Of a stretch of DNA of 64,000 nt, positions 21,516 through 55,400 are shown piece after piece. Numbering within the stretch: position 1 is the stretch's first letter; every line of letters begins with the position of its first letter. The position numbers were made by a program, and so were the translations under genes. The notes beneath the pieces were generated by a model. It worked only from the letters and a program-made list of their open reading frames with translations. It was not told the DNA's origin and made no database searches. Source of the stretch: Amoebophrya sp. A120 (Eukaryota; Protista; Dinoflagellata); NCBI GenBank assembly GCA_905178155.1, contig CAJINV010000008.1:2857303-2921302 (forward strand). The letters are read 5' to 3'.

Positions 21516-23702
21516 ATGTTTCGTTCTCTTCTCCCCATTCTGCTCGTCTCCACTTCTCACCTCTCCCCGGTCTCAGCCAAGAAGAAATGTCCCGGGCACT
21601 TTGGCGGGAAAACCAACGTGGCGAATCTGTGCGAGTCGCACTTTCCGGACAAGGCTTCTGAGAAAATATGGTTCATCAAGTTTTACGCCCCCTGGTGCGG
21701 GCACTGCAACAGCATGAAACAGGCTATCCTTGAGAAAAAAGCTAGCCCCTCACCACGTAATGCAGATGCAGAAATATTATATGCATCACAGAAGAAAATG
21801 TCTCTTCGATTTGCTATTTTTTTACATTATTGTTGCATTACGACCTTTATTGATGTGCTATGCTAGCAATTTTCTGCGTGATACAGCCCTGGATGGATTT
21901 GGGCAAGGAGTTGAAAGACGACAAGGAAATCGGAATCGGCGCCGTTGACTGCATATGCACTGCAAGTGTTTCTGGGTCGGGATAATGTGATGCTCGTTTT
22001 GTAAGTCAACAAGATATGCCGTAATGCATGTATGCGTAGGATAGGAGTGGCGAGTCTTTCCTTTTTCGTGGCGCACTGCAGGCCAGGTTGTCAGACTCTT
22101 GAAAGTACTAGATACAGATGATGTAGAACGACATTAATAGTCTTGGTATGCAGCTGTCCCTCTCACGTCGCAGAACTATCGAAGAGACCGCCATTTTTCT
22201 AGTTGCACGCAAGAATCAGCAAGACAAAGCACCCGTTTTGAGACCCCGTCGACATGTTTGTACTTGATACTGCGACAACGAGGGCAACAAACCTCTGTGC
22301 GGCAAGTACGGCGTGCAGGGCTTTCCGACGATCAAGGCAATAGTGGCAGGAAAGACGAAGGCGTACAATGGCGCCCGGGAAAAGCCGGCGTTCAAGCAGT
22401 ACATCCTGGATTTGAAAGCAAAACGAGGCAGCAAGGGCGGGAGTGCGAAGTGCGCGAAGGGCATCTTCAAGTCCACGCTGAAGGATTCCGTCTTGCCCCT
22501 GTGCGCAAAACACTTCCCGGACGAAAAATCAAAGTTCTCCTGGGTCACTGTCCTGTACGAAAAGGAAAAACTCGAGAAAAGCGACGTATTATTCGAAAAG
22601 TTTTGGAAGATTTTTTGTAGAAGTCGAACAGTGAATGTGAATGTGAAATGCAAAACTAACTCAACTCGAAGTTGTAGTAGGCGCAAGTATAATAGTAGAA
22701 GCGGTGCCTGTTCCAGGATGCTCAAGTACATAACAAGTTGTAAATCGTTGGACTTGTGAATTTCACTCTTCAGGAATTCAATCGGCTTGCGTTGGAGTTT
22801 GGCAATGAGCCCGCGGATAAAAACAAGTCTTTGAAGAGCAACAAGAAGCAATCGGAGCGGTTATCCGAGATCAAGGAGAAGTATTCAGTCAAGGCCGACG
22901 ACGGAAAAAGAAAGGCGGGGAAAAGTACAACTACACTTGTTGTTATTCTTTTTCTACTCCCAGGTAGGTGGTAGTGTACGGCAAGCATCTTGTTCGGAGG
23001 ACAGGCAGCATGCGGCCTGCATCTTGCCTGAGAGCAACAGAAGATTTGCCTGCACGACTCGCTTCACTAGAAAAAGAAGCCGGTACTATGAAAATTGAAG
23101 GAGCTCCAGAATGTTGACAGTCGACTCGTCTAATTAAAAAATCTATCATCTTCAAAAAATCAGGCAAAGACGCGCTCGCAAAATTCGGTGCGGTGTGCTG
23201 CGACTGCGAGAAGGAGAAAGACGCGAAGTGCGAGGGGCTGGAGAGCAAGGACCTGCCGAAGTTTTCGGTTTATAACCACGTTTCGAAAAAAACGTTTGTC
23301 TTCGACCAGAAGTACGACGTGGATCAGCTCACCGGGTTCACACTGGAAAAGCTGCAGTTTGTAGCGGAAGGGGGAGTATCAAATGTAAAAATGTCTGGGT
23401 CTGGAAGAATGCAACTCGTCATGCTAAATCTGAAGCATGCAAAAATCTGTGTTGCATGATTACCAAAAGTCGTCCAGTTTTGACCAAGTCGGGAGGGAGT
23501 TTCTCATGCAGCATAGGCATAAGAGAGATCGCACAGAATCTGTCATGCTAGGTCCTGCATTCCAGACCTCATGGGTCATGGAAAAGCTGCATGACAAGAA
23601 GTCGCGCACTCTTCCAGACCCAGACACTTTTACACTTGATAGGGAGCTGCCGCTGCGGCGACAGGGAGTGCGGGGGCGAAGAAGAAGAAGGAAGAGCTTT
23701 AG
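21516..23702 (+). CDS. Protein disulfide isomerase/thioredoxin-domain ER protein ending KEEL, 6 exons
   Basis: Signal peptide, FYAPWCGHC, IGAVDC, KYGVQGFPTIK; three TIR introns plus probable GT-AG introns 22586-22773 and 22925-23163; last exon gives ...AGAKKKKEEL*. Confidence 0.85.
21725..21883. mobile_element. TIR intron element, decayed
   Basis: TATCCTTGAGAAAAAAGCTAGC / GCTAGCAATTTTCTGCGTGATA; TSD caggc/cagcc; can be read as a GC-AG intron 21723-21886. Confidence 0.8.
21954..22269. mobile_element. TIR intron element, decayed family A relative
   Basis: TATGCACTGCAAGTGTTTCTGGGTC ... GACATGTTTGTACTTGATA; TSD ctgca/ctgcg; removal restores VDC-xNEGNKPLCGKY. Confidence 0.75.
23377..23641. mobile_element. 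TIR intron element, family A
   Basis: Family A TIRs; TSD GGGAG (23372-23376, 23642-23646). Confidence 0.93.
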
Positions 23703-24313
23703 GTATGAGTGTGAATCCCTTCCCCACGACCCCTTTGAATCAATTCCCCAAGCACCACCACCCGACCCGGATCACTACCCCACATCCCCCGCGCCGGCTG
23801 GCCTCGAAGATTCCCTTCTCTTCGCGATGCGTCTCCCGTCCGAGCTCCGTCCCTTCCCGCCACCCCGTGGGCCTTAGCTTCTTCCTGGCCCTTATCCTTT
23901 GCGCTCTTTGCCATCCATATTGCTGTTATGCCCCCGTCGTGTTTCCGTGCCGTATCTCCTTGCGGTATTGCGTGCCCCGTCGACTATAAGATAACGGATC
24001 AGTCACGCAGCCTGAAGACTCAAGCACGTTGCAGCAGATACCTGCATCTGCATGACTCCGAAGTAGATCGCACAGCAGCAAGGCTGCAATCCTCCAGGCG
24101 CAGTCGCGTTGTGGTCGACACTCATCAAGACCTTCGTCGACCAGGAGTGCGACGTGGTGAAGTGCAGCGCAGTGGGGAAGTGCTGGACGACGGGGATGTG
24201 CGGTGGTGGAGAGGTGAGGTTTGACTTCTCCACCTGCCTACCACTGGGGTAGTACCTCCCCAGGGTGGGGCGGTGGGGAGCTGATGCGTGCGGAGGTGAT
24301 TCACACCATAGCC
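23702..24313. mobile_element. Mutator-like non-autonomous element with 9-bp TSD, inserted in the stop codon of the PDI-like gene
   Basis: TSD AGAGCTTTA at 23693-23701 and 24314-24322; ends GG-TATGAGTGTGAATCCCTTCCCCACG vs reverse complement GGCTATGGTGTGAATCACCTCCGCACG; degenerate pairing continues ~80 bp. Confidence 0.65.
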
Positions 24314-31100: not shown

Positions 31101-34100
31101 TTCGCGGCTATTTGACGCACCTGCTTCGGATTGTTCCTTCCTAGGGAAATCCAGTGACATTCTACGGGATCTCATCGTCGACATCAAGCTTCGCTCTGGT
31201 AGTGCTAGCTCGTGGGACCGCATCTTTTTGATTGGGGATTCAACTCCTGTAGGCTCCGGGCTTGCCTGGGCAGCAGCACACAAACTCAACGTGTTTGACG
31301 AGAAACACCTCGTGGGCCTGATTTCTCTTACCCCGCATCCAGAGTTGATGCTCCGCCCGGCGATGAATACAGCGGACCCTCGTCAATTTCCGTTTTATTC
31401 ACTGCTCTCGCCCATCATTGGGGAAAGTGCTATCGGCATGAAAGACTTCGCGGCACTCAAGTCACAGATGGAGGATGACTTCGACGACGGGACGTTTGAC
31501 GATGGCACGATGATGCGAGCAGAGTATGTCAAGTTTTGGAGAAACACTGGCGCGAGATCACTGACGTGTTATTTCCGTGATAACTTCGAAGTTAAAGACG
31601 GGCGGATGCATGCAGTACCACGCTCGTTTTCATTTTTTAGCTCCACGTGAACACATAAAGGAAAGAAATCTCATCTATTTCTGGTAACCATATCACGAAG
31701 TACGAGAATAATTCTATTGCTCACTGCGAATCGAAAACGAAATTATTCATTGGGAACGCTCTGTCATTCCGGACGTTGATTTTTTGACTTTGAGTGCACT
31801 AAATTGATACAGGTTGGCGACTGGTTCGCTGACCTGCACCCGAAGCACCCACACATCCTGCTTCTGAACGCAGAGCGGGAAATCTCCTACCGGAAGGAGC
31901 AGTGGCTAGGCTCTTTCACCATGATTCCCCGCGAGCTCTCGCGACACCTGCGAATGCACACGGTGTCGGACGCCAGCAGTAAAGATCTGCTCTTTAGCGA
32001 CAAGCATAGCGAAGAACTGGCAGAGGAAATTTCCGCTTTCGCCTGGAGCGTGCGTATGACGGAATACCCGTGGCTGCTAGGTGTGGCGAAGATTGTGGTC
32101 GTTCCACCGGTACTGACGGGGGGGCTTGCGTACGACACGGAGAAGAACATCGCCCTTGGGTTATGAGGTGTAAAAACGTACGCACCTCCCCATAGGTAAA
32201 CTGCGACTTCACGAGTTTAGGGAACTCGGCACGACAAAATCGAAAGTTGAACACAAAGCATAATCGTGCTTAGCTATGAAGTCCGCATTTTGGGTTTCAT
32301 TGGTCATATGTTGAAGTCCGCATCACAAAAGCACTCTCTCATCCTGCTTGGACGATCAGAGCATCACAAATTATCAAGGAAGGGGAATCTGCAAATTGAG
32401 TTTGTGGTTTCGGTCGGTTTAAGCATCCCAAATTATCAAGCACTAAACCTTCATCTATGCGCGAAAATGTCTCCCACAAGAAGCTGCATGAGAGATTTGC
32501 CGGGCATGCAAAAACGCAGCACAAAGCTGGGGTGGCTACGTTTTCATTCCGGATATGGGTTTGCACTTTTCGCTGCGGCCTTCTCCGTCTTTGCTGGACT
32601 TTATCTCGAGCGGAATCTCGGATCCATACTAATTCGCACGACAAACAAGGAAGTTTACTGGCGCTTCGGTCAAGTGGCAATGGTGCCAATTTGTCTGGCG
32701 TGCATGGCATCGGCATCCTGGTTAGGATTGCCTCTGTGGTTTGCGGCTCTGTACAAGTTCGGGTTTCCGGAAGTGACGACGTTATTGTTGGCTCCGTGGC
32801 TGCTACGCGGAAAGGAGCATTGGGTCGACGTTTACGCGCGTTTCTTCGACGGAGTTGGCCACTTCATTCACCACACTGGGGCCTCCATCATCTATACTGC
32901 GATTCTCGCAAAGATGGTTTCGCCATTGCTCTTAACGGCCGCGATCCCACTTTCCCTGCAGCACGCGGTTTCGCCGCTGAAGTACCAGAGTACACGGATA
33001 CACGGGGCTTTGCTCACATTGTTAGAGGTGTGGTACCAATTCGAGTTTTTCCACATTCTGCCGCAGCTCCGCCACTGGGTGCCTGTTATGGGGCTGTGCA
33101 TGCTGACCTTCGCGCACTGGTGGTGGTTGGCTCGCCAGCTGGTTTGGTTGCCTCTAGCCTGGTTCTTTTCCGTTCCCGGGGACCGGCAGCGCACTCCAAA
33201 AGTACGCGCGTCGGTTTTTATGACGTCGATGCGTGTGTTTCGTTTCGCGGTCCGCCACGCGGCCTCTACGATTCGTAAGCGTAGTCAAGTGCGATTTTCC
33301 GGCGTGTCCGATGGGATGTTTTCGACGGCGGGTCGTTTCGAAGAAGACCAGATTTTCGAGCCCGATAACGACGGGAGCCCGGCTCTGATGCTAGAGGAGG
33401 CTGCACCACGGGATCAAGGACTGGACCGATTGCACGGGCGCCTTTCTGCAGGAAATATGAAGAATCAGGAAGGCGAGAGAAGTGGCTCCGCCGGTGCAGG
33501 GACAGGTACTCCAGTCCCTTCGTCGGGGGTGATCCAGCTTAGCAACCCGGACAGCGCGTCCGGACTAGCGTCTGCAGGTGTGAAAGACGTCGACACGGTG
33601 TCATTGATCTCCAGAGAAAGCGATATCAAGGAGCGACTGCAGTTCTTGGAGCACGATGCGGGAACCTCTTCGGACAGCCACGAGGTAGCAGGCGGGTCCA
33701 GTAGCGCGAAGGCCGCTCATCTTGTCGTGGCAGTCAGTAGGCACAGCGTCGCTGCCGCATCTGCAGCGACCGGTCAACAACATGCTTCCACCATAGTGCA
33801 AGCGCAGCGCCGGATCTCGAACACGACGTCGCCTTTGCCCGCGATGGATCATCGGGGGGTCTTGAACAACACTTCTGCGGGAAGCGCAACCGCCCCGAGA
33901 AGCTTAAGAACGCCGACGGGAACAACTGGAACCTCGACAGGCGTCACTAGTCCAAACAAAACCAGTACCCGAACGCAGCCTGCTGGCGGGCAGAACAATT
34001 TGTTCCCATTGATGGCATACTAAGTGCAAAAATGTCTGGGTCTGGAAGATTCTGACACTTGTCATGCACGTTTTGCATGAGCCATGATGTCTGTGATGCA

Positions 34101-34395
34101 TACCCTAGCAGTACAGATTTTCTGAGGGCTTTCCGATGCCTATTCCGCATGACAAATGCCTTCTCAGCGGAGCAAAAATTGCCTTCCCTTTGGTACTCAT
34201 GCAATACAGATTTTTTTGGAATCCAAATGCAGCATCACAAGTTGCATTCTTCCAGACCCAGACACTTTTACAGTTGATATGGCACCGTCTGCCACGACGT
34301 CGTCCTCTTCGCCCAGATACAACAGCCAACTCACAGGAGGGAAGCGACGTGAAAACGCGAGTAGTCCCGTGCAGCGCCCGATACTGAGTGACTGA
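25102..34395 (+). CDS. Large multidomain protein (~2519 aa): Cys-rich region, cytochrome P450-like region, alpha/beta-hydrolase-like domain, multi-TM domain; 5 exons
   Basis: Exons 25102-29581, 30452-31614, 31813-32161, 32561-34017, 34285-34395 sum to 7560 nt in frame; motifs EHIR, FPNPDEFDFNR, RKCLG, LNGFPHAPQSW, LIGDSTPVGSGLAW. Confidence 0.6.
29582..30446. mobile_element. Large (865 bp) TIR intron element with internal palindromes, related to family C ends
   Basis: TATAAAAGTGCAGCATAACTCCCCCTCCCCCTCAAAAT / ATTTTGAGGGGGAGGGGGAGTTGTGCACTTGTATA; decayed TSD taaat/tcagt; in-frame removal. Confidence 0.82.
32162..32555. mobile_element. TIR intron element, family B relative
   Basis: TATGAGGTGTAAAAACGTACGCACCTCCCCA / TGGGGTGGCTACGTTTTCATTCCGGATA; TSD TGGGT. 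Confidence 0.82.
34018..34279. mobile_element. TIR intron element, family A
   Basis: TACTAAGTGCAAAAATGTCTGGGTCTGGAAGA / TCTTCCAGACCCAGACACTTTTACAGTTGATA; TSD TGGCA. Confidence 0.9.
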
Positions 34396-37300: not shown

Positions 37301-37405
37301 GAAAAATTACCTTTTCACCAGAAAATAGAAATACCACTGTACAATACCTGTTGAAAAATCAGAAGAAGCGGAGAAGAATTTTTCCAAAGGTCCTTCTCGG
37401 GTGCT

Positions 37406-40400
37406 ATGACCCTAATGAAAGGAACTTCGCGACGAACAGCAGCCGTCGGGCCGTTCCTTCTTTTTCTCACTGCGACACTTTCCGGGTGGGATTTGGTGTC
37501 GGCTTCCGCCCCGGATGCCGGCCCGGATGCGGAAGCGGCTGCAAGCAGCGCAGGTGGTGCTGTTGCTCCTGCTGCTCCTTCTGAAGCTGCTGCAGCAGCG
37601 CGGGTGAACGTGAACCCGACAGATGAAAGAACGGGACGAGCAGGACAACTACATCAATACGGAGCTGCTGCGCCCGCTGAGGATCGAAGCGCTGCGTTGC
37701 CACGACTAACCAAGGCTGTCCAAGTCCTTTCGACGGCGTACGATCTGCACAACCGGGTGGCAGTTGAGGTCGGACGTGGAGATGGTGAACCACCACTGGC
37801 TACTAGTATCGAAGCAGGGGTTCCTTCCACCGGTGGACGAGGGTCGACCGACGCAGCGGTGCGAGTCGGCCGAAAACCTACAGCCTCTCCGGCGGATTTC
37901 TTTTTCCAAGCTGTGGACGAGGATCTCCTGGCGGCGGCGCGTGGAGGTCAGTGGGAAGCGGCTCCTCAAGGTGGCGGCGAAGCAGGGAGAAAGCATTACT
38001 TTTCCACAGAGCAAGCGCATTCTGTGCAGAAGATCCTCAATCTTCTACAGCCCTCGCTTTATAATTCATCGGGGGTTTATAATTTCCAACAGGTCAATAG
38101 AACCGGGCAAGCTCAACCTCAAGCAGGCGGCTCTGCGTTGTCGCCGGAAAGTGGTGGTGGGACCACGGAACAACGCCAAATCCCTGTCGTGGCGGGCAAG
38201 CGACAGCTGCTCGCTTTCCGCGAACTTGTGCCGGGGAAGCTAATGGCGCTGCTCACTGGCGATGGGAGCATGACCTATGTGGAATTTAACAAAACAACGG
38301 CTTTTCCAATGTTCACAGTGTTGAAAACGCAGCCCAGCCCCTGGGAGGCGTTCCTTGATCTGCACTTGTTTGACGGCCATGTCTGCAAAGAATGGCTGGA
38401 GAAAACGAGAACGAAGCCAGGAGGAGGTCCACCACATTATTCCGCTGGACAGGCGATGCCAAGTGTCGCTGGTACTAGAGCAGACGTGGTGTTCTCATCC
38501 GTCGAGCCCGATGCCGGACTACCTCCACAGAGCACGACGACGCAAAAAATGCTGAAGTTCCATCTGTGCCGCAGCAAATACGAGGAATTTCTGAACGCCG
38601 TGGTGGACAGTTACACGAAAGTTGCGCCGGCTCCTTCAGAGACAACACCTGCAACTGGAACTGGACAAGCATCTTATGCATTGCAAATATAATATGCTTG
38701 GGTCGGCGGGATCGGGAAGGCTGCAAATTTGTGATGCTCGTCCGTAACTACATGATCCAGCTGCACACAAAATAAAGTGTTGCGCGAACAGCAGAAGGTA
38801 CTTGCGTAGGACAGGGAGCATGACTTCTGATCTGGAATTTTAGGCACTGCAAGGCCCGCGAAAATAAATCTGTGATGCTGTGATGCTTGGCCATGCATTC
38901 GGTATATATCAAGCGGAGCATACAAGCGCTGCATGACACGCGTCTGCATTTTTGTTCCCGTAGACCCAGACCGCATATAATTTGCATTCGATACATTTTC
39001 CGTGGAAGATGAAATTACGCAGTTTCAGATCCTTCAAGTGTTGTTTAGTTTCGCGGAAACGAAACTGATGCCAGCGGTACTACCCAATTTTCGTGGAGCA
39101 GCAACACACGGTAGTCGTGCATCTGGTCCGGAAGAACAAGCAGAACCGGTACTGGATGTCGAACCTACTAGTGGTGGAAGCAACCAGGCCCGGCCGCCCT
39201 TGCATCTGTTCGCGCATGCGAGTGCTTCCGTCGCACTGGGGCAGCTGCACGAATCCGCCGAGTCGTTGTTGAAGTCTTTCAGTGCAGTAGATGAGGTTCT
39301 TGACTCGACTTTTCAAGTAGTGCCGCTCAACGGCACGCCGGCTGCCGCGGAACGCCAAAGGAGCAGGAGAGGCTCTAGAGCCGCAAAAAGAAGAACTCTC
39401 GCAACTTCGCTGCGCAAGTTTCTGCAGCTGGAAGTCCGGCCTTTTCTAGCCTCGCTTCAGAAGCCAAGCCACCGCCGAGCCACGAAGGCGCCAAGAACAA
39501 AAGAGAGCGACTCCGGTCCTGACGCAGCTGTTGTTTGGGATTCGTACGACAAAGCAGAACGCATTTTGGAGCAAACCGAGCTTATGTACTGGAAAGCGAA
39601 GTTTGCCGCGCACCGGCAATACAAGTTCGAGGTGCCGAGGGAAAGTAGAAATCTTCATTTGGCGAATTCACATGCGGATTCTACACTCGGCGCACTATTC
39701 GAGAAGCGCCTGGTGCCACAAAAAACTACTATGACTCGTCGGGGAGGATCGGAGGTCCGTCAAGATTCTCGTCCTCTTGCAGCTCAGGGACGACAGCAGG
39801 CTAGAAAAGGTCCAGAAGATGAAGAACACGTGTTCTCCACGACCTCCACTCCTGTGGAAAAGCTTCTGCCAGTCTTTTCAAAAGCCGCGTCTTTCGAAGC
39901 CCAGTTGACGGAATACGAAACCAAGTGCGCCGGCGAGGCGTTGTTCTCGCAACGGGGCGGACGACCGAAGGATTACAGCGAGTTTCGCGTCGCGTGCTTG
40001 CAGTTCTTCGACGACGTATTGGTCCAGTTGGTGAACAGCGACGCAGGGGGGATGTTGGGGCTCCGGGAAGGTGAAGTAGGTGCACATGACCTCCCAAAAG
40101 AAGGTGCCGGATTTTCATTTGCAGCCGTGACTTCCGGAGATCATGGTAGGCTCCTGCTCCGTCTGTGGACGGCTTTTTCAAACACCTACGAGCCGTGGGG
40201 GAAAGATTTGTTAAGCTCGTTGATCGTGGATCTGAGCGTCGAGATGGTCACGGTACCACAGGGGACAACTTTAGCCGCGCTGCGGTCTGAGGCACAGCTC
40301 CAGCGGAAGCGCGTCCTTTCCATCCGAAATCTGAAGGACCCGGCGGTCGTGCGGAGTCAGTTCTACCTGACGAACTTTACCATGTACGCAGTTCTGTACC

Positions 40401-43400
40401 ATTTCGTGACGCAGAGAGCGTTTGATGATTTTGCTGTTGCTTCTCAAAAAACATCTCAGGATCATGTCGACGTAGGCAGTGAAAGTCGAAGTGCGGGGAA
40501 CAATAACCTCCCGGAGACCGCAACGAGAACAACTCCACAGAGACCAGTATCTCCGTTCTCGACCTTCGCGCCAATTCTGAACGAGAACTGGCTGGACTTT
40601 CTCGTCCTAGACACACAAGACGCGCGGGACGCAGCGGCACGAGTGCGGGATTGGGTGGTGCGAAACACAATGTATCATGATTCTTCTAGCTCGTCGACTA
40701 CCACCCGCGTAGTTGTAGAAGAAGCTGCGCCTGCTCCTCCAAAACGACCGCTCTTCCACCCGAACGACGCCGAGGGGGCGAAGGAATTTTCTCTCGCATT
40801 TTACCGCGCGTTCAAATCCAGTAACGTCGTCCAAGCCGTGCTCGACAAGGCAGCGCGTGACTTTAAGCAGCAGCAGGAGAGCTGGGCACAAAACTTCTTC
40901 CTCGCGGAGGTCGGGAAAAAGCTGAAGAAAGAAGAGTTTGCGATGGGGGTGATAGCCACGAAACTGGACGCCTTGCAAGTGGAGCTGGAGCTGAAGACCG
41001 AAGAGAAAAAGCGTTATTCTGAGCTCGCAGAAGCCTGGAAAACCGCCGCACGGAATCGGCAAGCGGAGCAGGAGGCCGAATTCGTCAGCGGTCGTGCGGA
41101 CCACGGGGCGAGGGGACGAGAGGCACGACCGCCACCAGCAGGCGGCGACCCGCAGCCACCGAGAGGTTCCTCTTCGGAGCTCGTCTGGACAACTTCTGAA
41201 GAACAGCAAAAGGGGAGAGAATATGAGTTGGAGGCGCAAAAACTGGAACAGGAGCGGAGAAAACTTCGGGACGATATGAGCAAACTGCGGATGGACAGGG
41301 ACGATATGACCAAAAGAGTAGGCAGGAAACAACTTTCTTGGTACCGTGCGGGCGATTCGTTTTATGCCCAGAGGGTGCCCGTAAGGCCGTTTGTTAACGA
41401 GGACCAGCTCTGGAGGGAATTATTATACGTTGACTTCTCCCAGGAAAAGAGAGAGCAGCTGTATCGTGAAGCAGAAGCGGACAACGCGTTCCTCCTCGTG
41501 TTTTGCTACTTGTTGTCGCGTGAGGTCGACCCGCTCTTAGCGGCCGGCTCGACCACAACTAATGTCGAGGACCTGAGCCTGTTTTTTGTCCAGAAGCTCG
41601 CGCACTTTTCCTCCAATTTAGTCTCGCAGTTCGTATTCGACACGACGGCGGTGGGAGCTATGGAGTCGCAGAGGGGCGCGGATTTGCTGGCCCTGCAACT
41701 CGGGGTCTCGGTTAGTGGCAGCTTTGCGCCAGTCATCGATAGTACTGGTATCCTCAACCACGCTGAACAGGCCCTGTCAAGAACACCTGGGGCGGGGGGA
41801 ACACCGGCGTCACCGGGGGCGTCACCTTTGGAAGAGGAGAGGCAGAACAGCGACGCAGAGGACTTTGCCAACGTGTTTTGCAACAACCAGTTTCAGCTAG
41901 CGGCGGGGGGCCGCTGGCGACGAGTGTTCGAGGAAGTTCAGGAGGAAGGTCTCCTGGGGAAGTTGAAGAATGGCGCATCAGCATTAATATGGGGTGAAGT
42001 TGTAAGAGAGTCGGAGGCGCACCAAGAACCGGCCTCTGACCCGACCTCGGTGTTTCTTTTCCAGCTGGCGCGCGAAGTGCGCAGGGCAAAAATCGAGCGA
42101 GGTGAGTTGTTCACCGATAGTTCTTTAACGCAGTTTCAGCCCGCCTCTCCGAGTCCAACTGCTGGTTCCGATCATCCGGAGCCGGATCTCGATCTGTCCA
42201 ATGCCGCGACCTCTGCGAAGGTGCAGAAGCTTCAACGGTTAAAAGCAAAGCACGCACAGCTAAATTCTTTGTTCACACCCCGCACCGCGAAGGAGCGTGG
42301 AGCCGCAGCCGGGCCACGGCAGGCGGGCACGCCAAGTGGCTCGTCGTTGCCGTTTGGTGCGACGGGTGTGGAACAGCTGCCGAGGTATCCGAAGACGGAC
42401 AAGCCGTACCTGGAAATCACGGAGGCCGAAGTGTCGGACGCTGAGGTGCTGCAGAAGTGCCACGACGAAGCGGTCCGGTTTTACCACCAAAGGCGCCCGG
42501 TACGCGGTATCTCCGCGCGGGCTGTTTTCCGGGCGGTGTTTGTCGAGCCGCCGACAGCTTCACCCGAACGACCTCCAAAGCCACCGGTCAGTGTCGGGCT
42601 GACTTTCAAGACGCAATCCGTGCGCGAAGCGATGGCTGCAGGCGGCATGAACCACATGCGGCCAATCAAGGTTTTGGATCCGTGGCAGGGGGGCAAAACG
42701 ACTGCGTTGCCGCGCGAGATATACGAACGGATGAACGCCGCGTTTCACCTGGAACTGCCCGCGGAACTTATTGATGCGGCTGCCATTTACGAACTCGAAA
42801 ATTACCCGTCGATCGCAGCCGCGAGAGCAAGTAGGCAGGAGGCGGCTCTCGCGCCAACTGGCGGGTTTTTTACCCGCACGGTGAAAAACGTGGTTTCGTC
42901 AATCCGAACAAGAAATGCGGACGACCACGAACTTCAAATCCGCGCTCGCAGGGCAAAGACAGCGGCCACGGTAAAAAATCAGTTGCAGTGGAGCTTCCCC
43001 CAGCTCCACTGGAGTTTTCGAAGCAGCGCCTCTGCTTTTCACCCTTCTGCAATAGACGGTCGAGTGCGAAGCAACCTGCCTCTGCTGCGCGCGCTCGACC
43101 GCAAGTATCGACCGGAGTGGATGTCGCCTGAGGCCTATGTGGATTTCACTTCCCTCTTTCTGGCGGCGCCGTCTATGGGGCTGCGAGTCGTCGGTGGTGC
43201 AAAATCGTCTCCAACAGCACACACTTTGTTAGGCAAACAGAACATGATCACCGGTAGTTCTGAAATTGTCGAGAGCAGCAGGTGGAACAACCTTCACCAC
43301 GACGACGCACAGAATCTCTTCCTCCTCGAGTCGTTCGCGTCCGCTTTGCGACGGCGGCACCTTGCAACGGACTCCGTGCTGGTGTGGCAGTGGATGCGCC

Positions 43401-46400
43401 AGCTATTCTGGCAGGTCATCGCAAAAGCAAGGGTCGTTGTTCGTGGTGGCGACTCAGGGATGAAGATGTTGGTAGAAGACGCTTTTATTTCGTCGAATCT
43501 GGCGAATATCTTGCTGCAAGAGCTGGACCAAATTGCCGCTGCAGCGTTCCAGGTCCCGCGCCACCCGTCCACCGTGTTCGATCTGCATTTCGCCGTGGAG
43601 GTTTTGACGAATTTGGCGACTCTAAATGAACAAGTGCACAAAAAATCTCTCCTCGCGGACGACGGAGGTCTTCTTGCAACAAGAGCAAGAGCTACTCAGG
43701 ACGATGGACACGCAGGCAGAAGGACGACCCAAGATGACGCGGAACAAGAGCAGCGCCAGGCGTTCCTCGAGCGACCTCTCACCCAGCTGCTCACCCTCGC
43801 GGAGGAAGCGGTTCACGCAGGCTTCGATGCGCTGGACGAGCTGGAAAGGTTGCAAAAGAAGAAAAAGTTCGCGGTCGAAGCGGCTCTCGACAGCGCAGAG
43901 GGTAGCAGCCTCGAGTCGGAAGCAAGCCTGCTTGAAGACACCGAATCGATGAACGTGGTTGCGCTGTCCGCGAAGGGGCTGTTTCTTTCCGCGGCGCGGG
44001 GCTACTTGGAGATTCTCCTGCTGGTGGATAGTAGAGAGACAACAAACGCCAAAAGAACTGCAGCGCCTCCTGAAGACGATGTTGAACAAAGAGACACCCG
44101 CCGAAGCTCGTCGCTGCGGGCCGTCGTAGGTGAAAAGAAGCTGCCTGCGAAATTTCTGCAGTGTCTCCTACTGCTCGACGTGATCGAAGTCGACGAGGCG
44201 GGGTTTCATCTCGGCATGGAGCTACACGAAGGGAATTCATCGCACGACAATCTCCGCGAAAAGCAGTCTCTTCTCGCAAGTTTGAAGGATGCCGAGAGGC
44301 ACTTTTTCCACAGACTCCGCGAAGCGCACCGGAGCCTGGTTTCGGAACCGACCGGCGTTTTTTCCGCACTTTCCTTTCCGCAGCACTTGTCCACCGCTCT
44401 GCTCTCGAACGAGAAAGCGCGCCAGGCGGTGTGTCTTCCCCTGGACCGCTCGACACTGAAAAACGGGGTCCCGCACCACGAGAATATTTCTACCGAGGGC
44501 GAACCAAGAACACCGGCCGACACAGTGTCCTATCTTTCCGAGTACACTGTCGTGTTGCCGGGGCTCAGTCCTGCCTCTTCTCCGCGGGGGTCCAGTGGAG
44601 GTAATAGATTGGCTACAACCACGTTGCAGCAGCATGCGGCGAAGAAAACCATCGCGGTGTCTTTCTTGACGGGGAGGCTCTACCTAGACGGTGAAGTGTG
44701 CAAGAAGTCAGATTTTCTACCGCGGGAAATTCGCGAATCAGCGGAATTCAAAGCCGTTTTCGGGGTTGGGCCAGGTGCTAGCGCCTCCTCTACCTCCGGC
44801 AGAATGGACGAACAAACCACTCCTGCGCAGCAGACCAACAAAAAGGATCGTGCTTCTCCGGTTCATCTCCAAGCGGACCAAGGCCTCGCGATTGCGAGTT
44901 CCCTGTCGGCACACGTCGAGGGTCACTGGAAAATCGTCGGAAGTCCTCTGCTATCCAAGAAAAAAACTGTGTAAGTGTAAGTCTGTGATGCAGAAAATGC
45001 AAAACAGTTATGCTTGTCATGCTCCACATGCATGATAGGCTCGTGTCCTACGTGTTTTCCCGTCCTATCTGCGCATGACAAGTTTTTCCTGTCATGGCAG
45101 ACGAACTTGTGATGCTGTTTTCCCAAAAGACCTACACTAACACAGTTTTTTTCTTGGATATCTGCGTGAGGACGGCCGAAGCGCTAGTAAAAACGGAGAA
45201 GACGATGTTGGCCAGATCTTCAATAATGGAAGTGATCCGCTGTACTCAGTGAGCCTGAACAACACGCCTTTTGTCACCGATAGCATTCTCGGGGCAACTA
45301 CAACTATATCGGGAAGTAGAACTACGCCGACCAGCCGTGCTTTCCAGGACGTCAAGATGTACTTTCAAGTCAGTGACGGGATCGCTCAAGAACAAAGCAT
45401 CGTCCCGACGCAGCAAGCAGAGGAGTCTGGTGCTTTTTCACCTGCTGCACTTCTGCCAAGAGAGGAAAGCGCGGGAGGACCACCGCGAGCGCGGCCGCCA
45501 AATCCTCCACGTACTGTCGACATTTTTCTGCAGCTCCGCACGCAGATAAGCGAGAAGCTGTCCAGCGCGCAGGACGTTTTGCTAGAATTTCTCCCCGACG
45601 AAAAATTTCCCGAGGCGGAGCGAGTCCTGCCACAGAGCCTGAAGGAAAAATTGGTGCATTGGCGCGTGGTGACTGCGGATAGAAAATCCAGCAAGTACTA
45701 CCGTTACATCATATCGTTCTACAAGAAGGAGTTTGTGGGCGACGCGCCGCACGCCCGGGAAATGTTAACGTTTCAACATACGACTGTTGGCGATCAGAAA
45801 GGGCGCGCTGACCTTTTGAAGATCTTTCCGGAGAAGATTCCCTTTGTCTGGCGGCAGGAGGTGGTTTTATTGGAAATGGAGCAGGAGACGAGAACTACCG
45901 CGACTGCACCGCGATTAGGAGAGTTGGAATTTCTGAAGCTGCCGATTCACGTACTTCATACCAACGCAATGAGCTTGTTGCGGTTGCTATCCGCCGGAAA
46001 CGATCAAATGCTGGAAAGGCTCATCTTCAGCGGGACGAGCATGCAGCTCGTACAGATGGAAGATCTACCGGACCCCACCACTACTGCTCGGGGAGCAGAT
46101 GATGATCCTGCGCTTTCTCATCTTCCGGATTACCTCCGCGTGTTGCAAAATCTGTTTCCGAGAACGAACGAAATTAGTGTTGCTGGGGAACAACAGGTAG
46201 TAGATGAGCATAGGCTCCGGCAGCAGAGCTTCAGTTGGGTGAAGGACGAAGTCGAGGTGTGGCGCCCGTACGAGACTCGAGTTACGGAAGATGGCATGAT
46301 ACCGGCAGATGAACAGGAGGGCAGAATTGGTGACCCTTCAGGTGCAAGCGCTTTCTTGGAAATCGTCTTACCCAGGTTCAACCTCAAGTTCGAGTTGAAA

Positions 46401-49400
46401 CAGGCTGATAGCGATGCAGATCCTACGAGCGCAGCACCAGAAGGTGGTGCACCCCGAGGACCAGAACGTCCTGCCTCTACTTCCACCGGGAAGCTCCTGG
46501 GCAAGGGCGCGCTCTACGGCTACGAAGTATGCGCTGACCAGCGTATGATGTTTGCCGCTGTCGTCCCTCAAGGGCGGGTGCAAGTGGCAAGAGAAGGAAG
46601 CGCAACGAACACGGTGCAGCAGGAGCGTCATCCTCTCCGCAACGCATTTTTCTTCGAGCTCGTCGAAAATTCCTTCCCGCATATCTGGCTGGAGAAGTGT
46701 CAAGAACAGAGCGCGACGAGGACTTCCGGGGACGAGTCGAGTACTAGATCCTGCGAGTACAAAGTGCTGGTACTGTACACGTCCAACGGGTCGTCCTGGA
46801 CACCTACCTCGAGAACGACGACGACTGGGAGAACATTGGGGGAGGATGAAATGAGTGCAGCGTCGAGCAGTTCCGAACAATCTTCCGAGCGCCACTTCTT
46901 CATTTATGATGTTAAAGGCGACGCCCTCGGTAGTGTTCTTCCCGGACCTGCAGCGGAAGATCGGGATCGAGCAAATTCCGCTGGCAAATTAACCCAGAGG
47001 ATGGACCACATCCGTCTGCACACCGACCACAGCGCAGCAAACTTTCTGCTGGCGTATCATTTACTGCAAGCAGACCTTACAACCACAAGGACGGCAGGAG
47101 ATGATAAACGCCAGGAAGATTCTTCTGGCCACTTTTATGCTGCACCCCCGGATGAGCGAAAAATCCAGGAAGTACTGTCCTCGATCCGCTCTGCCTGGCG
47201 CGAAAACTATGAGGATTACGGGATGACAAAGGCGGAATTTCGGCTCGAGCGCGAAATCTTCGGCAGCCTGGTAGCCGTCGTGAAACAGCTCCTGAAGCAA
47301 AGCGGCGTCATGTTCCTGGACGAAGATAATTCTCAAGGTGCTGCGACCGCAGCGAGACAGTACCCTGCGGGGGCCGCACAGATGAAGAGATCCTCTCCAT
47401 ACGTCACGATCTACTACCTGCTGTGCCAGTTGGCGAAGGAGCGCTCCTTGCTGCAGTTTTTGTACGACAGTTCTAAGCAGCTGGACGTTTTCTCCCGGGT
47501 TGCGCAAGAGTTGGATGTGGCGACACAGCTGTATCTGGACACCTTCAATAGAAGCGCTCCTATCGAGGTGGAGCTACAAGAAGAGACACCACTAGCGGAC
47601 GGTGGTCGGACCAGCACAAGTGGGCCCCTTCTAAATTTTTACAGAAATCTGACAGCAGAGGAACGGCATTCGTTCCTGCCATACGCCCCGTCGCTCGGCG
47701 GGGACAAGCTGGCTGTGCAGCAAGAAGCACGCGCTGATGATTTGTTTGGTGCCGACGGAGAGTTTATCCCACCTCTCAAACAAGAATCGGCCAGAACGCC
47801 AACAACCACCCCTGTGCGGCCGGGAGAAGGGCAAGGAGCACCATCTGACTCCGTTTACAAGATCTCCGAGCCGCTGCAGAATCTGTTGCGCAAACGAGGT
47901 GAAGGAACTCTGCCCTCGCCGCTTTTTGCCGTCAGAGAGGAAGACAATTTGAGTGTGACGCAGAAGCTGGAAAGACTGCTAATGAGAAAAGTGTTGCTTC
48001 CGGTTCATCGCGAGGTGGACACGGCAAGAGTTAGTGTGCCGGGGAAAATTAGTGCAGCAGCAGCAGCAGCCGCACAAGGTCTCTGCGGCGTCCCATCGGC
48101 GTCAGCAGTTTCTGCTTCCGAAGCGAGCCCGGTCTTTGACCGCCCGCTCGGAAAGGAGCTGAAGGAGCAATTCGAGGCATCTCTGCAGAAAAACCACGAC
48201 GCCTGTGTGGAAAGAGGAGCGGCTCAGGTGTCTTTGCAGCTTGCTGATTGGGAGAGCTTGTTTCATTCCCGAAACGAGGTCGTTCTGCGCGAAAAGAACC
48301 AGCGGATGGAGTTCTTGTTGGCGCAGCAGGGGAAGTTCCTCGACGGAGAAGTTCTACTTCCAAAAGCACATCCCCTGCAGCTTACGGCGTCGGAAAAGGA
48401 GCGCTTTGAAGAAAGCGCACTACACTACCTCGTCCACGACCATGCTGGCACGACCACGTCGGCGGCGATCCTGGACTCCGTCGTGAACTACTTCGAGTTG
48501 GTCATTCTGGAGAAGAAGCTGCAGCAGTTGGAAGCTCTTTGGAAAAGAGTGCAAGCCGAGACGAGCACAACAACTCACCTAGGAGAACTACCGCCATCCC
48601 CTGTCGGTCAGGTGTCATCCTTGGCCGCTCCCGTGCTCGGCCTGGCTGTGCAGAGGAAGCAAGCCGTCCTCCTGGACGACATTCGTGACAAGCTGGAGAC
48701 CGTGAGAACGTTCAGCTCGAAGCAGTTCCCCTTTTGGCTCGCCCTGGAAGTCGTGCAGGGGCACAAGCAGATCCGGCCGAAACAGGTGCAGGTGGCGCTG
48801 CAGTTGATTCTAAAGAACGGCACCGTGTCGCAACTGAACATGGGCGAGGGGAAAACGTCCATGATCATCCCCATGCTCATTCTGTACTGGCGCAGTCGGA
48901 AGACGATCGGGTATAAAAAGCGGCTGGGCGGAAGTGAAGACGAGGTCGTGTTTTTGGACGCCGAGATGAAAAGAGATGCAGACAGAGCGGGAGGATCATC
49001 CGATGAGCATCAAGATGAACATGCCACTTATACATACGGCCCCACGCTTGCCTTTCAACCAGAACCATCGGGCGCTTCCGCGCAAAATGGTAATCCACCG
49101 GACGGTGCCTTCGAATTGGTCTCGCAACCGATCAGGTCGCCAACGGAAAGGACGCATTTGATTCGGGTGTTTTTGTTGCCTTCCTTGATCCAGGACAATT
49201 TCAAACAGTTCCACAAACTGCTCTGGCAAAGCGTCTTCAAGGTGCCGATCTGCACGCTGCCTTTCCGCAGAGAGCACTTGCGATTTTTCTCCGCAGCTGA
49301 GGGGACGAAAATATACGACGAGACTTTATCCTTGCACGAATCTGCGCGAGGGCACACCCAGACCACCGCCCTTCACGCTGAAAACATGCTTCTATCAAAT

Positions 49401-52400
49401 GTAAAAATGTCTGGGTCTGGAAGAATACGCGATTTGTCATGCAGCTTTTCCATGACCCATGAGGTCTGGAATGCAGGACCTAGCATGACAGATTCTGTGC
49501 GATCTCTCCCATGCCTATCCTGCATGAGAAACTCCCTCCCGACTTGGTCAAAACTGGGCGACTTTTGGTAATCATGCAACACAGATTTTTGCATGCTTCA
49601 GATTTAGCATGACAAGTTGCATTCTTCCAGACCCAGACATTTTTACACTTGATAGCTTCGGAAGCTGGACCACTGCAAGACGCGCGGGGGCGTGGTGTTG
49701 CTGCAGCCGGAGAACTATCAAATGTAAAAATGTCTGGGTCTGGAAACTTGTGATGCTGGGTGGCATCTCATGATGAGGCCACAAGTGCTGGCTCAGCATG
49801 ACAAATTTCTGAGCTTGTAGGTGTTGCCTATTCTGCATGACAAACTGCGTTTCTGCATCACAGAAGAGTTGAGCTCTTCGGTAATGTGCATGACAGATTT
49901 TAGAGTTATGTCAGACAAGCATGACAAACATGCATTCTTCCAGACCCAGACATTTTTACACTTGATAAGAACCGGTACAGTGTGCAGCTGAAATTTTACG
50001 AGCTGGCGCTGGAGTGGAAGGAAGCGCGGGAAAAGTTGTTGAAGAGACAAAAGGACTTAGAAGCGGCATCTAAAATGTCGTCGGCCGAAGCCGAACGACG
50101 AGAAGTCTTGGACGACGAGGGCTTCGAAGACGCCGTGGAGGTGGATTCGAGTAACGAACAGGCGCAGATTTCTACTTTGATGCAGGATACAGTCGCCGCT
50201 ATGAAGAGAACTGTTACCGCTTTGCAGAAGGTTCTGAACTTGCCCTCCATCACGATCATCGACGAAGCGGACCAGATCTTGGCCCCGACCAACCAGAGCC
50301 TATTCTCCTACGGCAAGGGGTCGCCTCTGTCCGACCGGCAGGAACGAATTCTGGCCATCCACACCGTTTTCAAAGCAGCCACCCTGGTCGTACAACGAGA
50401 GCAGACGACCACGAAGCCGCATCATGCTGGGGCTGCGCAGCGCGCAAGAGGCAGAGCAGAAGGCATGCGCGAACAACCGATGGAAGAACAAGCGCAAGTA
50501 GGACGACCCTTGAACCAGAAGCTTGCGGATGCTGCGCGTGCGGCGTTCAAAAACTTCGAGACGGATGCAGCGAAGACGGAGTTCAAGAGAAAAGTGGTAG
50601 ACAAGCTTTTCGCACAACATGCTGCAACCCGGGAAGGCAGCGCAGCTGCAGCAGTGTCCCGCGGACCTTTCTTTTCCTTCACGAACGCGGGGACACCGAG
50701 GTTCGTCAAGTTTTTGCAGAAAGTCGGGGCTCGCGCGGACGCGACAAGAAAAGCGCTAACCGACTTTGTGCTGAACGTGACGACCTCGGAAGAAATAAGA
50801 TCTCGGCCTTTTCTTGTTGAAGAAAGGCCTCAACTTCCAGTTGTAGTCACGGACGCAGACGTTCTGTGGGGAAACGTGCTCGCGACAGCGGAAAAAACGG
50901 GCATTCTATACCGCGGTACATCCTCCTCGTCGTCTGCGGTCGAGGACCAGCCGGCGTATGACGGCGATGGGTTTGTGCAAAGCGTAATCGGTCCGCAGAT
51001 CCGGATCCGCAGAAGAGATGTGGAGGACTTCCACACATTTGCCCTCGCTCTGCGAGGTTTCGTCGGGAATGACGTTTTGGTGCACGTTTTGGCGGACATG
51101 CGTCTGAAGAAGCACTTCGGACCGCGCGGAGGAGGTGGAAAAATAACCAGGCCAGAGGACCGTGGAGATGTAGTTGGCGCAGGAGGTAGTCCTCCAGGAC
51201 GAGCAACTACTGCAGCCACGACGAACAGTAATCCGACCGAGCTCGCCGTCCCCTACACAGCGGCAAATCTCGCGTCCACAAACAGTGAATTCGCCCACCC
51301 GGACGTACAGCTGGCGTTGACCCTGCTGATGTACTACGAGGAGGGCATCAGCTTCTCGCAGTTTTCCCGTGTCTTGAAGTTTCTGATACGGAAACTACAG
51401 TCGAAGGCCAAAGTCCACGAGGACGAACATGTGCGCGACGCAGCCAAAAATTTTTTTCGCAGCCAGGAGCAGGACGTCGCGGAACGGGACCAGGAAGAGG
51501 TGAAAAATCTTTTGGACTTCGACGGCGGCGGCTGGGCGGGGGCGGTGCTGGCGCAGGGCTCGCTCCTGGACGCGCAGCAGCGCGGACGAAAAGATCAGGC
51601 ACGACAACTTTTCGAGGAGCGCAAAGCCAAAGAAGCTGAAATGGAATCACTCGCCGAAGACTTTCGGCATACCAGCCTGCAGAAGATCGTGAACGAGCCC
51701 GAGCAGTCGCGAAAGTACTGGGAGGTGCTGCAAAAGTTTCCGGATCTCATTGCGTTTTTCCTCACGTTCACGTTGAAGCACGCGAGGGACAAGTACCACT
51801 TTTCCAAACAGTTGGTGGCAAACCCGTGGGACCTGGCCGGAGATAGGTTCCGGAAAATTGAAAACGTGTTTTTGGAGGACCGAGAAGATGGGCCGCTCCT
51901 GCAAGCAGAAGTTCCGGCAACCTATTTGGTCGCAGACAATCACGTCGCGGGTTTCTCGGGCACATCCACGAACGCGAAGTTCCTACTTCCCCTCCCATTA
52001 AAAGCGGAGAACCTGCCGCAATTGGAGCACACCAACGGGAGAATTATCTCGGTTCTGAAGCAGAAAGAGGAGGACTTCAACCTGGCTGCGCTCACGGGAG
52101 CTCTCACGGGAACACTAGCAGAGCATTTCCGCCTGTCGTCGCCAAGATATTCATCCGTCCCTGGAAGCGATCATGATGCTGGTAGCAATTCAGGAGAGGA
52201 TGACTTTAGCACGCCGCGCAGCAGTCGAAGTAGCTCGCCTAGTACTTCTAGCGGTTATCACAGCAGCGGCACGTCGACCTCTTCACGTGGCCTTCTGAGT
52301 GGCTCGGCCCTTCCCACACATCTTCAAGCATTTCAGATCCACTCCAACACTGAAAGTAGCCGTGCGTCCAGCCGGTCTTCCGGGGGGTCTGCGCGACGTC

Positions 52401-55400
52401 GTGCCTCCCCAAGCAGGACCATGTTGAAGATCTTCTCCACTGCGAGCAGCGACGCAACTTCTACCAGTGAAAATAACCTACCAAGCTCTGCTCATTCGCT
52501 GCATGCGTCGACTGCGTTGAAACTTGCGCAACTTGCGACCGCGTTCCCAGAGCTTCGCGCGATCATGGACTCCGCAGGCCTGTTTGCCGGCGTTCCGAAC
52601 CGGGAAGTCGCGCGATTGATCGCCGAAAAGTTCTTTTCCGTCGAAGGTGCGGACTTCTACGGGGAACCGCAGTGCGTGCTGTTCAAGGACACAGAGGTGG
52701 TGTCTACATCATTATCACCCGCCACAGTAGATGGTGGCTTCAGCAGTGCGGGCCTTCGTGCACCGTCGAAAACATCAAGGACCAGCACATTTTTACACCA
52801 GCAAACCAATTACCTGAACGATTGGGCCGTGTACGATCACCGGCAGCACACGATAAACCGATTCGACCGCGAGGGAGCAGGTGCGGAGCAGAGCAGCGCC
52901 TCGGAGTTTTACCACCTGTACAAAGAAAATTCCGACACCGTCCCATGCTTCGTCTATTTCGACGATCGGAACAACCGCGGCGCGGACTGGCAGCTGCCGG
53001 CGAACGCGGTCGGCGCGGTTTTGTTTAACGAAATGAGCACCTTCGACCAGGTCGCCCAGGCCTCCTGGCGGTTGCGGCAGCTGGAGCTCGGGCAGAGCCT
53101 CAGGTTCGCGGCGTGGACCACTTCCACGCATCAGGAACAACGCGACGCGGGGGCGACCACGCGAGGACTGTCGTCGTTGCAGTCCGTTGACGACCTCATC
53201 CAGTTTCTCCTGGAAAAATCCGCGGTCGAGAATATGTAGAGGAAAAAGAAGTGTTGCAGTTGTGATACACATGATGTTGTTCTTCGCGCACCAGGTCAAG
53301 CAAGACAGACATTCTCTATCATACTGGATCATGATGTGCTCTGAACCCCGGGTGTACCACCCTGGTTGCATGCGTGTTTTCTCTCATGGTTATATCAGCA
53401 TTCATTTTGCAACACGTCAAGCCTCTTGACATGATGTAGATCAAGTTTATTGTGTTGCTGATGTTAGTACTAGAAAATAGAATCTCAATCCACTTTACAT
53501 CGTGTAATACTTTTTTTCTTTCATAGAGAACGAGCGGCAGTTAATCCTCTACGCGCACCAGGCCGAAACACACCTGCACATTGGGGACGACCCGGATTTC
53601 GCACTGCTCGAGGAGAGTTCGTCCGTAAGAAGCATGTATGGAAACAGTCGGAAGTCGATCGCGCTAAATGAATTTGTCGAGGCGAGTTTCAGGCGGAAAT
53701 TTTTCGGGGATGAAAATGTTCACGTTGTTGAACAAGAACCGAAAGCAACAACAGCGCAGGGACCTGGTGTTCGTCGTGATGTCGGAGGTCCAGCCACCCC
53801 TTCTTCAAGTATCTCCTGGATGGCGCGGATGTGGAAAAAGAAGTCGTCGCGGCATTACGTGGTATCAAATGTAAAAATGTCTGGGTCTGGAACAAAGCAA
53901 CTTCTCGTGCTAAATCTGAATCATGTAAAAATCTGTGTTGCATGATTGCCAAAAGCTGCCCACTTTTGACCTAATCGAGAGGCAGTTTCTCATGCAGGAT
54001 AGGCATGATAGAACGCTCGCAGAATCTGTCATGCTATGTCCTACATGCCAGACCTCATCGGTCATGGAAAACCTGCATGACAAGTCTGGCACTCTTCCAG
54101 ACTCAGACATTTTTGCAGTTGATGCGTGGCGTTGCGGGACGAAATTTTACAGAAGATCCAGAAATATGGCACGAATGTGGCAACCACTACAACCACCATT
54201 CCGGCGTCTACTACTTCGCGCCCGCACTGCAGCGCCTCAGAACATGAGCAGGCGGCTTTTATCTCCGCAGCAAACGCCTCCTGTGCGGGGGCTTTAACCG
54301 CAACGATCACCGTTGAGACGGACCATACGGCTGAAACCACCACCGAGCAGGAGGTGGACCAGGATGTGAACATGAGTGTGCAAATGTTCGTGAATCAACA
54401 CCGGCACAGCCCGCGCTACCCGTTTCCCGAAGTTGGGAACGAGTTAAAACCGTTTGTGGAAAAGGACTGGAGCTTCGAACTGGTCCGACTGAATGCAGCT
54501 CCTGCTGGTCGCCCCACGTTGGAGAAAAGCAGGACAACTAGGACGAGTACCCTCGGTAGCACGCTCCTGCTGCAAGAAGCGGAACGGGTGTTGGCGATCT
54601 TTGAGGACAAGATGCGACAAGCCAGGGACGAAGCAAGCCCTAGTAGTACCGGCACACGACCGAGTGCTGCAAGAATTGTCACTTCTCCGAAGACGAACTC
54701 GTCACCCTCCTCCCGCCCGATCGTTCGGCAGGGGCTCACGCTGCCGAAACTGGTGCCGCTCCGCGAGCTGCTGCAGGCCAAACGGGCCGAAATAAATCGT
54801 CCAAAGCTAAACTCCGCCGACTCTGACTCGAATGCGGAGGAGAGCGATGGTCGCGATCCCGCTGTGGTGCCGAGCGAGGAAACGGAACAGAAATTATTGT
54901 ACGAACAGCTTCTCAAGACCAAAACCTTGGCTCGGGTCTTCGTCACGGAAAACTTCGCGAACGTTTTCGATGTCTCGTCGGGAAATAACGCTTACGGCTC
55001 CCGGTCGAGCAGAGGACCATCGCTTGCGTCGCGGTTGTTTCGTAGATCACCAGCGGGGTCGACGTCTTCAGACGAGGACTCGGATTACACAAATGCTGCA
55101 AGAAGTATCCTCCGCCGCCCGCAGAACGCCCTGTGGCTTCCGGACGACGAAACGACAATTCTCCTGTCCGACCGCGAGGCGGCTTTGGTGCAAGAGCAGT
55201 TGTTCGAGGAAGACGCGACGAGAACCGCGGAACTGGACGAGGACAGAATTGCGGATTTCGCTGCGTTCTGGGGAAAGAAACTGAAAGTGACCGTTGTGGC
55301 TCCTAACGTGGAGGTCGCAGGGTTTGATGCTCTACTTCCCCGCGAACTACAAGAAGTAGACTGTAAGTTGGATGTGAACCGCAATTCCGCCAAGGAGATG

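Follow-up and report, generated by a model that had tools for sequence, protein, structure and literature searches.

Introner elements of Amoebophrya sp. A120 have been described with inverted repeats that consist of TAT, seven variable bases and at least three A, and with direct repeats of 3-5 nt (Farhat 2021, PMC7789003). Gozashti 2025 assigned them to diverse transposons, including terminal inverted repeat elements with Copia/Gypsy-like open reading frames (ORFs) (PMC12130899). More than 60% of Amoebophrya introns lack GT-AG boundaries (PMC7789003). Here we analysed a 64-kb stretch of the A120 contig CAJINV010000008.1 (referred to as the window), in which eight related elements were identified. 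They are A120 introners, they lie both ways round in genes, and they are missing, together with one copy of their target duplication, from RNA-type contigs. They share with the published elements the organism, the ends, the short direct repeats and the hairpin, and likewise the non-GT-AG boundaries and the co-oriented gene blocks (Farhat 2021, PMC7789003; Gozashti 2025, PMC12130899). Their 5-nt repeat falls within the described 3-5 nt, removal at non-GT-AG boundaries was seen for 3 of the 8 copies, and they form a repeated family; the window elements are the already described A120 introners and not something different.

Introners that make introns either way round are known from the spliceosomal classes of Polarella glacialis reported by Roy et al., who also cite Aureococcus anophagefferens (bioRxiv 10.1101/2020.10.14.339549). 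Like these, the A120 elements are short, carry target duplications, insert in either orientation and leave the length of the message unchanged. According to the same preprint, however, the Polarella and Aureococcus introners use GT, GC or GA donors with an AG from the element or the duplication, and all those classes are biased toward one orientation, whereas the A120 elements show no AG requirement and no significant bias. Held against that type, our elements agreed in the either-orientation insertion and departed from it in the GT/GC/GA-AG boundaries (GT-AG in 3 of the 174 elements described below, in the -1 register).

The nonconventional introns of euglenids are similar in being abundant and non-GT-AG, with inverted ends, direct repeats and a 3′ tail longer than the 5′ tail (PMC12501133, PMC11282704). 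Their code, 5′-N3CDG...CH'GN5-6|R, has a purine after the joint (PMC12501133), whereas no purine rule was seen in the A120 arrangement N|UAY...AUA-N4, and circles are reported for them (PMC12501133, PMC11282704). The euglenid signature was not found in our elements, which end in TAT...ATA, but paired ends with fixed short tails were, at -1/0 and +4/+5 in 10 of 10 joints, with weak pairing in some; the Euglena code is the nearest geometric parallel. In Fritillaria borealis, as summarised in PMC11282704, introns derived from miniature inverted-repeat transposable elements (MITEs) also have inverted ends and duplications and are removed by an adapted U2 spliceosome; there the preferred ends AG-AC and AG-AT are kept, whereas the 3′ dinucleotide is free in A120. 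The search of Gozashti 2022 allowed for insertion in the opposite orientation (PMC9860276). We found no orientation data for Amoebophrya in the accessible portions of PMC11282704, PMC12621601 and PMC13326754, and no published report of a 1:1 orientation or a fixed register in A120, although subscription papers, Farhat figures S19-S25 and supplements may hold them. The literature searched also yielded no mechanistic study of A120 introner splicing.

A scan of the window with the 30-nt end repeat gave eight left and eight right ends, which could be paired into eight elements, typically of about 260 nt, with 30-nt inverted ends and 5-nt target duplications (exact in 7 of the 8 copies, with one mismatch in 61043). 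The inverted repeat, of the TAT-N7-AAAAA type, lies for instance at 23377..23406 on the + strand, is mirrored at the far end of every copy and starts with TATCAAATGTAAAAA, that is, TAT, seven variable nt and then three or more A. Orientation A comprises 23377..23641 (265 nt, duplication GGGAG, the last intron of a PDI-like gene), 53863..54124 (262 nt, CGTGG) and 61043..61302 (260 nt, CCCAC/CCCTC, of which the joined form keeps the 5′ copy). Orientation B comprises 9402..9664 (263 nt, GGGAG), 34018..34279 (262 nt, TGGCA, starting with TAC), 49393..49654 (262 nt, GCTTC, within a DUF3638/DUF3645 gene) and 56698..57060 (363 nt, CGTGC, with an internal 98-nt tandem duplication). The eighth copy, 49716..49967 (252 nt, AGAAC), belongs to a separate subfamily with the same inverted repeat; its removal restores the frame, and its direction relative to the other seven copies is uncertain.

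Orientation was assigned from BLAST comparisons of the interiors after trimming 35 nt off each end. A first-pass annotation had called the 49393 interior a near-exact reverse complement of both 23377 and 53863; this wording suits 23377 (minus strand, 97.3% over 186 nt, E 1e-89) and is less apt for 53863 (minus strand, 86.8% over 189 nt), while 23377 and 53863 match each other on the plus strand at 85.6%. The inversion of 61043 relative to 34018 was likewise found (minus strand, 82.3% over 186 nt, E 2e-50), and all coordinates named in that annotation hold. So do the places it gave for a small ORF, MQKSVLHDYQKS..., which starts at 23437 on + and fills 49373-49594 on -. At the equivalent position 53863 reads ATG TAA, and 34018, 61043 and 9402 also differ; thus the MQKSVLHDYQKS ORF is not a conserved gene.

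The copies within 9397-9683 and 23372-23660, which lie in opposite orientation in unrelated genes, have the duplication GGGAG in common and a similar downstream flank encoding Ala-Ala-Ala-Ala; this may be chance or a target preference. The pair of subfamilies at 49393-49967 recurs in the same arrangement, 50-60 nt apart, at positions 1-552 of a locus from another assembly (L110), which was considered as the same locus and rejected as unrelated.

Removal from the message was read from contigs of the runs X3-X6, whose RNA status is a guess (probable RNA) and which represent one sample; among the data sets listed as containing the window, none is recorded as RNA. Being contigs, they give no splicing efficiency, and they and the published gene models are possibly non-independent data. 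The best 15 of 19 joints were listed, of which four ran from repeat to repeat and were set aside, one was GT-AG and 10 were non-canonical. In contigs of both X3 and X4, 267 nt are skipped at 53863 (A), 368 nt at 56698 (B) and 265 nt at 61043 (A), each time the element plus 5 nt, and one 4869-nt X3 contig skips both 53863 and 56698 with no other letters. Intron status is therefore given by RNA-type contigs for 3 of the 8 copies, and removal in both orientations, as the first-pass annotation had it, was observed, with 49393 itself not among the spliced copies seen. For 23377, of the offsets from 0 to 8, only removal of the element plus 5 nt agrees with the published A120 protein P0121. The intron status of 9402, 49393 and 49716 comes from the reading frame, which at 9402 is open for 281 + 123 codons after removal of the element plus 5; 34018 is the weakest case, with 36 open codons after the joint.

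A GT-AG intron at 62535 is missing from the X3 and X4 contigs as well, as would be expected of spliced RNA. The 98-nt tandem duplication inside 56698 occupies 56734-56929 and the element is still skipped precisely, so that its interior length is not read. Run X1 showed even coverage, with contigs unbroken from exon into element at 34018, 44952, 49393 and 49716. In this second comparison, where element copies dominated the X1 matches, the 15 of 123 joints listed included none for these four sites, which counts neither way for their removal. From the raw RNA runs came 28 reads (X9) and 3 reads (X10), all on elements and uninformative on splicing. When the flank frames were set without regard to any excision, each of 33 elements required the loss of 2 mod 3 extra bases, among them 10 elements in each of the two orientations of the main family, and the Sec23 alignment is gap-free across its joint.

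To judge the balance of orientations (which takes in more than the window), we used further loci from one other assembly, at which the exact 30-mer of the inverted end occurs (at least 131 loci, 385 kb; 8 copies in the window) and whose copies are 83-96% identical to their best matches in the window. A scan of window and loci with the terminal three bases left free gave 414 candidates, 289 of them with TAT...ATA. After 101 candidates with ends far from TAT/ATA or overlapping a better call were dropped and duplicates removed, 288 were left. The final set consisted of the 174 whose host strand was clear and whose frame stayed open through the joint, 10 of them from the window. Host strand was assigned by a codon model trained on the window, and 41 of the 42 loci with more than one confident element were strand-concordant. 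In the loose chain-linked family the two orientations stood at 52 vs 57 (p=0.70), and pairs at 90% identity or more were 27 same-way and 27 opposite. With tighter clustering, all 11 subfamilies with at least four confident members occurred both ways and none was off 1:1 (p>=0.23); the subfamily on which the first-pass annotation had drawn stood at 9:8. Copies in the loci that were matched directly to window copies gave 31:21 (p=0.21). There is no significant orientation bias, and small biases are possible.

The 10 non-canonical joints listed come from several families, and in all of them the element plus 5 nt is removed. Only two offsets suit all 10 joints: the 5′ cut falls either directly at TAT or 1 nt ahead of it, and the 3′ cut correspondingly 5 or 4 nt past the final base of the element. 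At 21954 the duplicates differ at base 5, and the published gene model there fits -1 or lower and not 0, while relatives in the PDB gave no decision on the D/N residue at that joint. The intron boundaries, as narrowed by this one gene model, are likely N|UAY...AUA-NNNN. The commonest A120 splice sites are all NT-NN (Farhat 2021, Table S4, PMC7789003), as would be expected because the -1 register predicts such sites. In that register all 16 3′ dinucleotides are present among the 174 elements, with AG in 12 and GT-AG in 3, and a GT/GC-AG pair in any register is offered by just 13. AG stood at background level at every position of the duplication in the 174 elements; TG at duplication positions 3-4 was seen 23 times vs 10.8 expected (p=0.0007), which was lost after 144 comparisons. 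No GT/GC-AG was found among the possible registers of 53863, 56698 and 61043. No GT/AG rule applies to these elements, and separate cryptic canonical sites for each orientation were not seen, the same element plus 5 nt being removed both ways.

The consensus by orientation showed that the first 30 and the last 30 transcript nt are the same whichever way the element lies, and in both orientations the 30-nt inverted repeat places a U-run together with an A close to the 3′ cut. On the transcript the cut is polar, falling 0-1 nt ahead of the 5′ arm and 4-5 nt beyond the 3′ arm. The first-pass annotation had argued that an oriented branch point or pyrimidine tract can play no part in removal; this does not follow, because both inverted ends supply oriented signals and a branch point or U-run is thus possible. 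It was right that the interior holds no signal, but not that two-way insertion implies a route unlike standard spliceosomal introns, since two-way introners have ordinary splice sites in Polarella and two-way insertion alone is not evidence of a non-spliceosomal route.

Across families, end positions 1-3 and 11-15 are conserved and 4-10 variable. Three GT-AG introns are supported by contigs or gene models; they start with GTAT, GTAC and GTAC, and the elements start with N-TAT or N-TAC. In 4 of the 10 joints (53233, 61043, 61355 and 61558) the predicted pairing probability of the terminal three pairs is 0.10 or less, and the same register in these weakly paired joints favours reading of a motif over a pure stem ruler. 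An internal YTRAY motif was present in the last 60 nt of just 3 of 69 elements, and the terminal TTGAT-like match, found in 71 of 174, is family-specific. An invariant branch A as a sense-specific signal was suggested by the 10 RNA joints and failed in the 174 elements.

We consider an adapted spliceosome that reads signals in the inverted ends to be the agent of removal with about even probability. A transposase or integrase would insert the element through a 5-bp staggered cut, regardless of the direction of the gene. Either orientation gives the transcript, as read from the consensus, the same ends, with TAY-N7-A-run at the 5′ side and U-run-N7-AUA at the 3′ side. The cut, judged by the 10 joints and the 21954 gene model, is most likely N|UAY ... 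AUA-NNNN, so that the element and exactly 5 nt would be removed and the original message restored for any target sequence. Perhaps the machine reads U+2 and A+3 as in host GUAY donors, with the first base freed; the branch A may be one of the two in the terminal AUA that follows the U-run, at -7 or -5, with lariat chemistry predicted; and the 3′ cut would be set by distance and not by AG, while pairing of the ends may help to join the sites. A120 keeps 83 of 89 spliceosomal proteins plus U2, U4, U5 and U6, with U1 RNA undetected (PMC7789003). The likeness of the 5′ element end to host GUAY donors (3 of 3 supported GT-AG introns) speaks for this reading.

Several points weigh against an adapted spliceosome. 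The elements lack both the G at +1 and the AG of the 3′ cut through which the standard spliceosome docks the 3′ site. Young copies fold into stems of about 30 bp with a pairing probability near 1, which would hide both sites. None of 20 end positions in the 174 elements differs between the 5′ end and the mirrored 3′ end at p<0.01, a comparison limited by the prior filtering out of strongly degenerate ends, and the conserved end motifs may reflect transposase binding and not splicing. Three of the 174 elements, each known from sequence, have no A at -7. Moreover, the -1 register comes from one gene model and the GUAY likeness from three introns, and the joints come from contigs of guessed RNA status, from one sample and without efficiency.

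A dedicated, non-spliceosomal endonuclease and RNA ligase might instead act on the paired ends at fixed offsets, with a circle or a linear hairpin released, a route that has been proposed for the euglenid nonconventional introns. This follows the same symmetric logic, is closest to the view of the first-pass annotation, and is in our judgement a possible explanation that falls short of probable. The free dinucleotides at both cuts, the lack of an orientation bias and of a 5′/3′ asymmetry in conservation, and a median ungapped stem of 33 nt agree with it, as do the Euglena introns with their short 5′ tail, 5-6 nt 3′ tail past the paired motif and circles (PMC12501133, PMC11282704) and the undetected U1 RNA of A120 (PMC7789003). 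It is opposed by the weak terminal pairing predicted for several removed introns and by the resemblance of the 5′ end to host GUAY donors; nor was selection on an RNA stem shown, as the sense strand had no clear excess of G-U pairs relative to A-C mismatches (178 vs 148, p=0.11). A second genome-wide system, in which any insert bounded by TAY-N7-A-run is cut out with 5 extra bases whatever its target or direction, by such a nuclease and ligase or by a spliceosome blind to dinucleotides, is conceivable, and we give it less than an even chance. It would mean that a second splicing system makes a whole class of transposons invisible to genes, with an origin independent of the euglenid system.

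Template switching classically happens at a hairpin with short direct repeats, and the joined forms were seen only in cDNA-type contigs, as they would be if reverse transcriptase jumped the hairpin during library making and nothing were removed in the cell. At the three joints with a choice (60473, 61043 and 61355), however, shared stretches of 1, 2 and 2 nt were used over longer ones of 2, 3 and 4 nt, in line with the register shared by all joints, which argues against such jumps; retention would also interrupt long genes (5744 codons, against no more than 2020), and neither the 2 mod 3 rule in 33 of 33 elements nor the gap-free Sec23 joint fits, so that we regard template switching as very unlikely. 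Normal splicing of each orientation from its own cryptic GT/GC-AG sites is the mode of the two-way introners in Polarella (Roy et al., bioRxiv 10.1101/2020.10.14.339549), and 13 of our 174 elements would permit it in some register. It is contradicted already for 53863, 56698 and 61043, where no such register is possible, and by AG at background at every duplication position, which makes it extremely unlikely in general. Somatic excision of the DNA in part of the cells, with a message that never contained the elements, would restore the empty site exactly, as clean excision does; we hold it to be very unlikely, since the X1 contigs run unbroken from exon into element at the four sites given above and X3 also skips a GT-AG intron. 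A rare empty site is conceivable, as contigs drop rare forms and the joints examined there were the 15 listed of 123.

Two-way insertion as such is to be expected when an element has inverted ends, and it has been reported before for other introners; the element family itself is already known, and what is gained is a precise, testable splicing code. Three constraints are added, namely that direction is irrelevant, that the cut keeps a single register with respect to the end motifs and that the 3′ dinucleotide is free. The fixed cutting position likely points to an unusual splicing machine. The constraints direct attention to the terminal AUA as a branch-point candidate and to mutations worth scoring, and, across the genome, duplications with a mismatch can pin down the splice sites exactly. 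If the ruler has the length of the duplication, this would also account for the spread of tens of thousands of such elements without damage to genes.

As the first-pass annotation had stated, the host genes are all on +. The codon model gave + for all 14 window elements scored (with small margins, 3.7-3.9, for 34018, 63291 and 63656), in agreement with Pfam matches on + and two published proteins. The gene at 38981..58441 (+), with DUF3638 and DUF3645 by Pfam, carries copies of both orientations, and the two halves of DUF3638 flank the 49393 and 49716 elements on either side. Removal of its seven elements plus 5 nt each leaves 5744 open codons, vs at most 2020 after removal of the element plus 4, 3 or 0, and the 3′ part of the gene lies within one X3 contig spanning four joints. 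No annotated protein spanning 49393 was found among proteins of 2481-5000 aa, and the predicted protein is longer than that range. The PDI-like thioredoxin protein gene at 21516..23702 (+) has three introner-type introns (21725-21883, 21954-22269 and 23377-23641) and two GT-AG introns, and its product ends in KEEL, as in a homologue. The Sec23 ORF at 18050 and the thioredoxin-fold (PDI-like) ORF beside 23377 are 100% identical to Amoebophrya sp. A120 proteins. In a further host gene region, 59180..63400 (+), RNA-type contigs show one GT-AG joint besides six non-canonical ones.

Fourteen more elements of other families in the window have the same TAT...ATA ends and a 5-nt duplication. These are 20302-20581, 21725-21883, 21954-22269, 32162-32555, 44952-45160, 53233-53525, 57184-57393, 59892-60258, 60473-60706, 61355-61504, 61558-61872, 62179-62486, 63291-63613 and 63656-63976, and seven of them are skipped in RNA-type contigs under the same element plus 5 rule. 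Among the loci, 150 of 154 paired copies are 200-299 nt long (overlapping loci counted twice); the longest paired copy in these loci of up to 6.3 kb is a 972-nt insert with the same ends and the duplication CGCCG (L027, 3001-3972). The loci, each of which is at most 6.3 kb, yielded no autonomous element that shares these ends and encodes a transposase. The traits of a MITE are present, as the elements are short, with terminal inverted repeats, a constant target duplication and no conserved coding capacity. A GT-AG intron at 22586-22773 starts with G-TAT-N7-AAA, like an element in the -1 register, and lacks the mirrored end; it is possibly an old element turned canonical.

Elsewhere in the window, positions 1-8136 hold about 2.3 tandem copies of a unit of about 3.46 kb, which contains an ORF of 400-460 codons on +. 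At 29710-30228, directly after a 1495-codon ORF, a 51-nt repeat occurs three times at intervals, accompanied by local inverted repeats.

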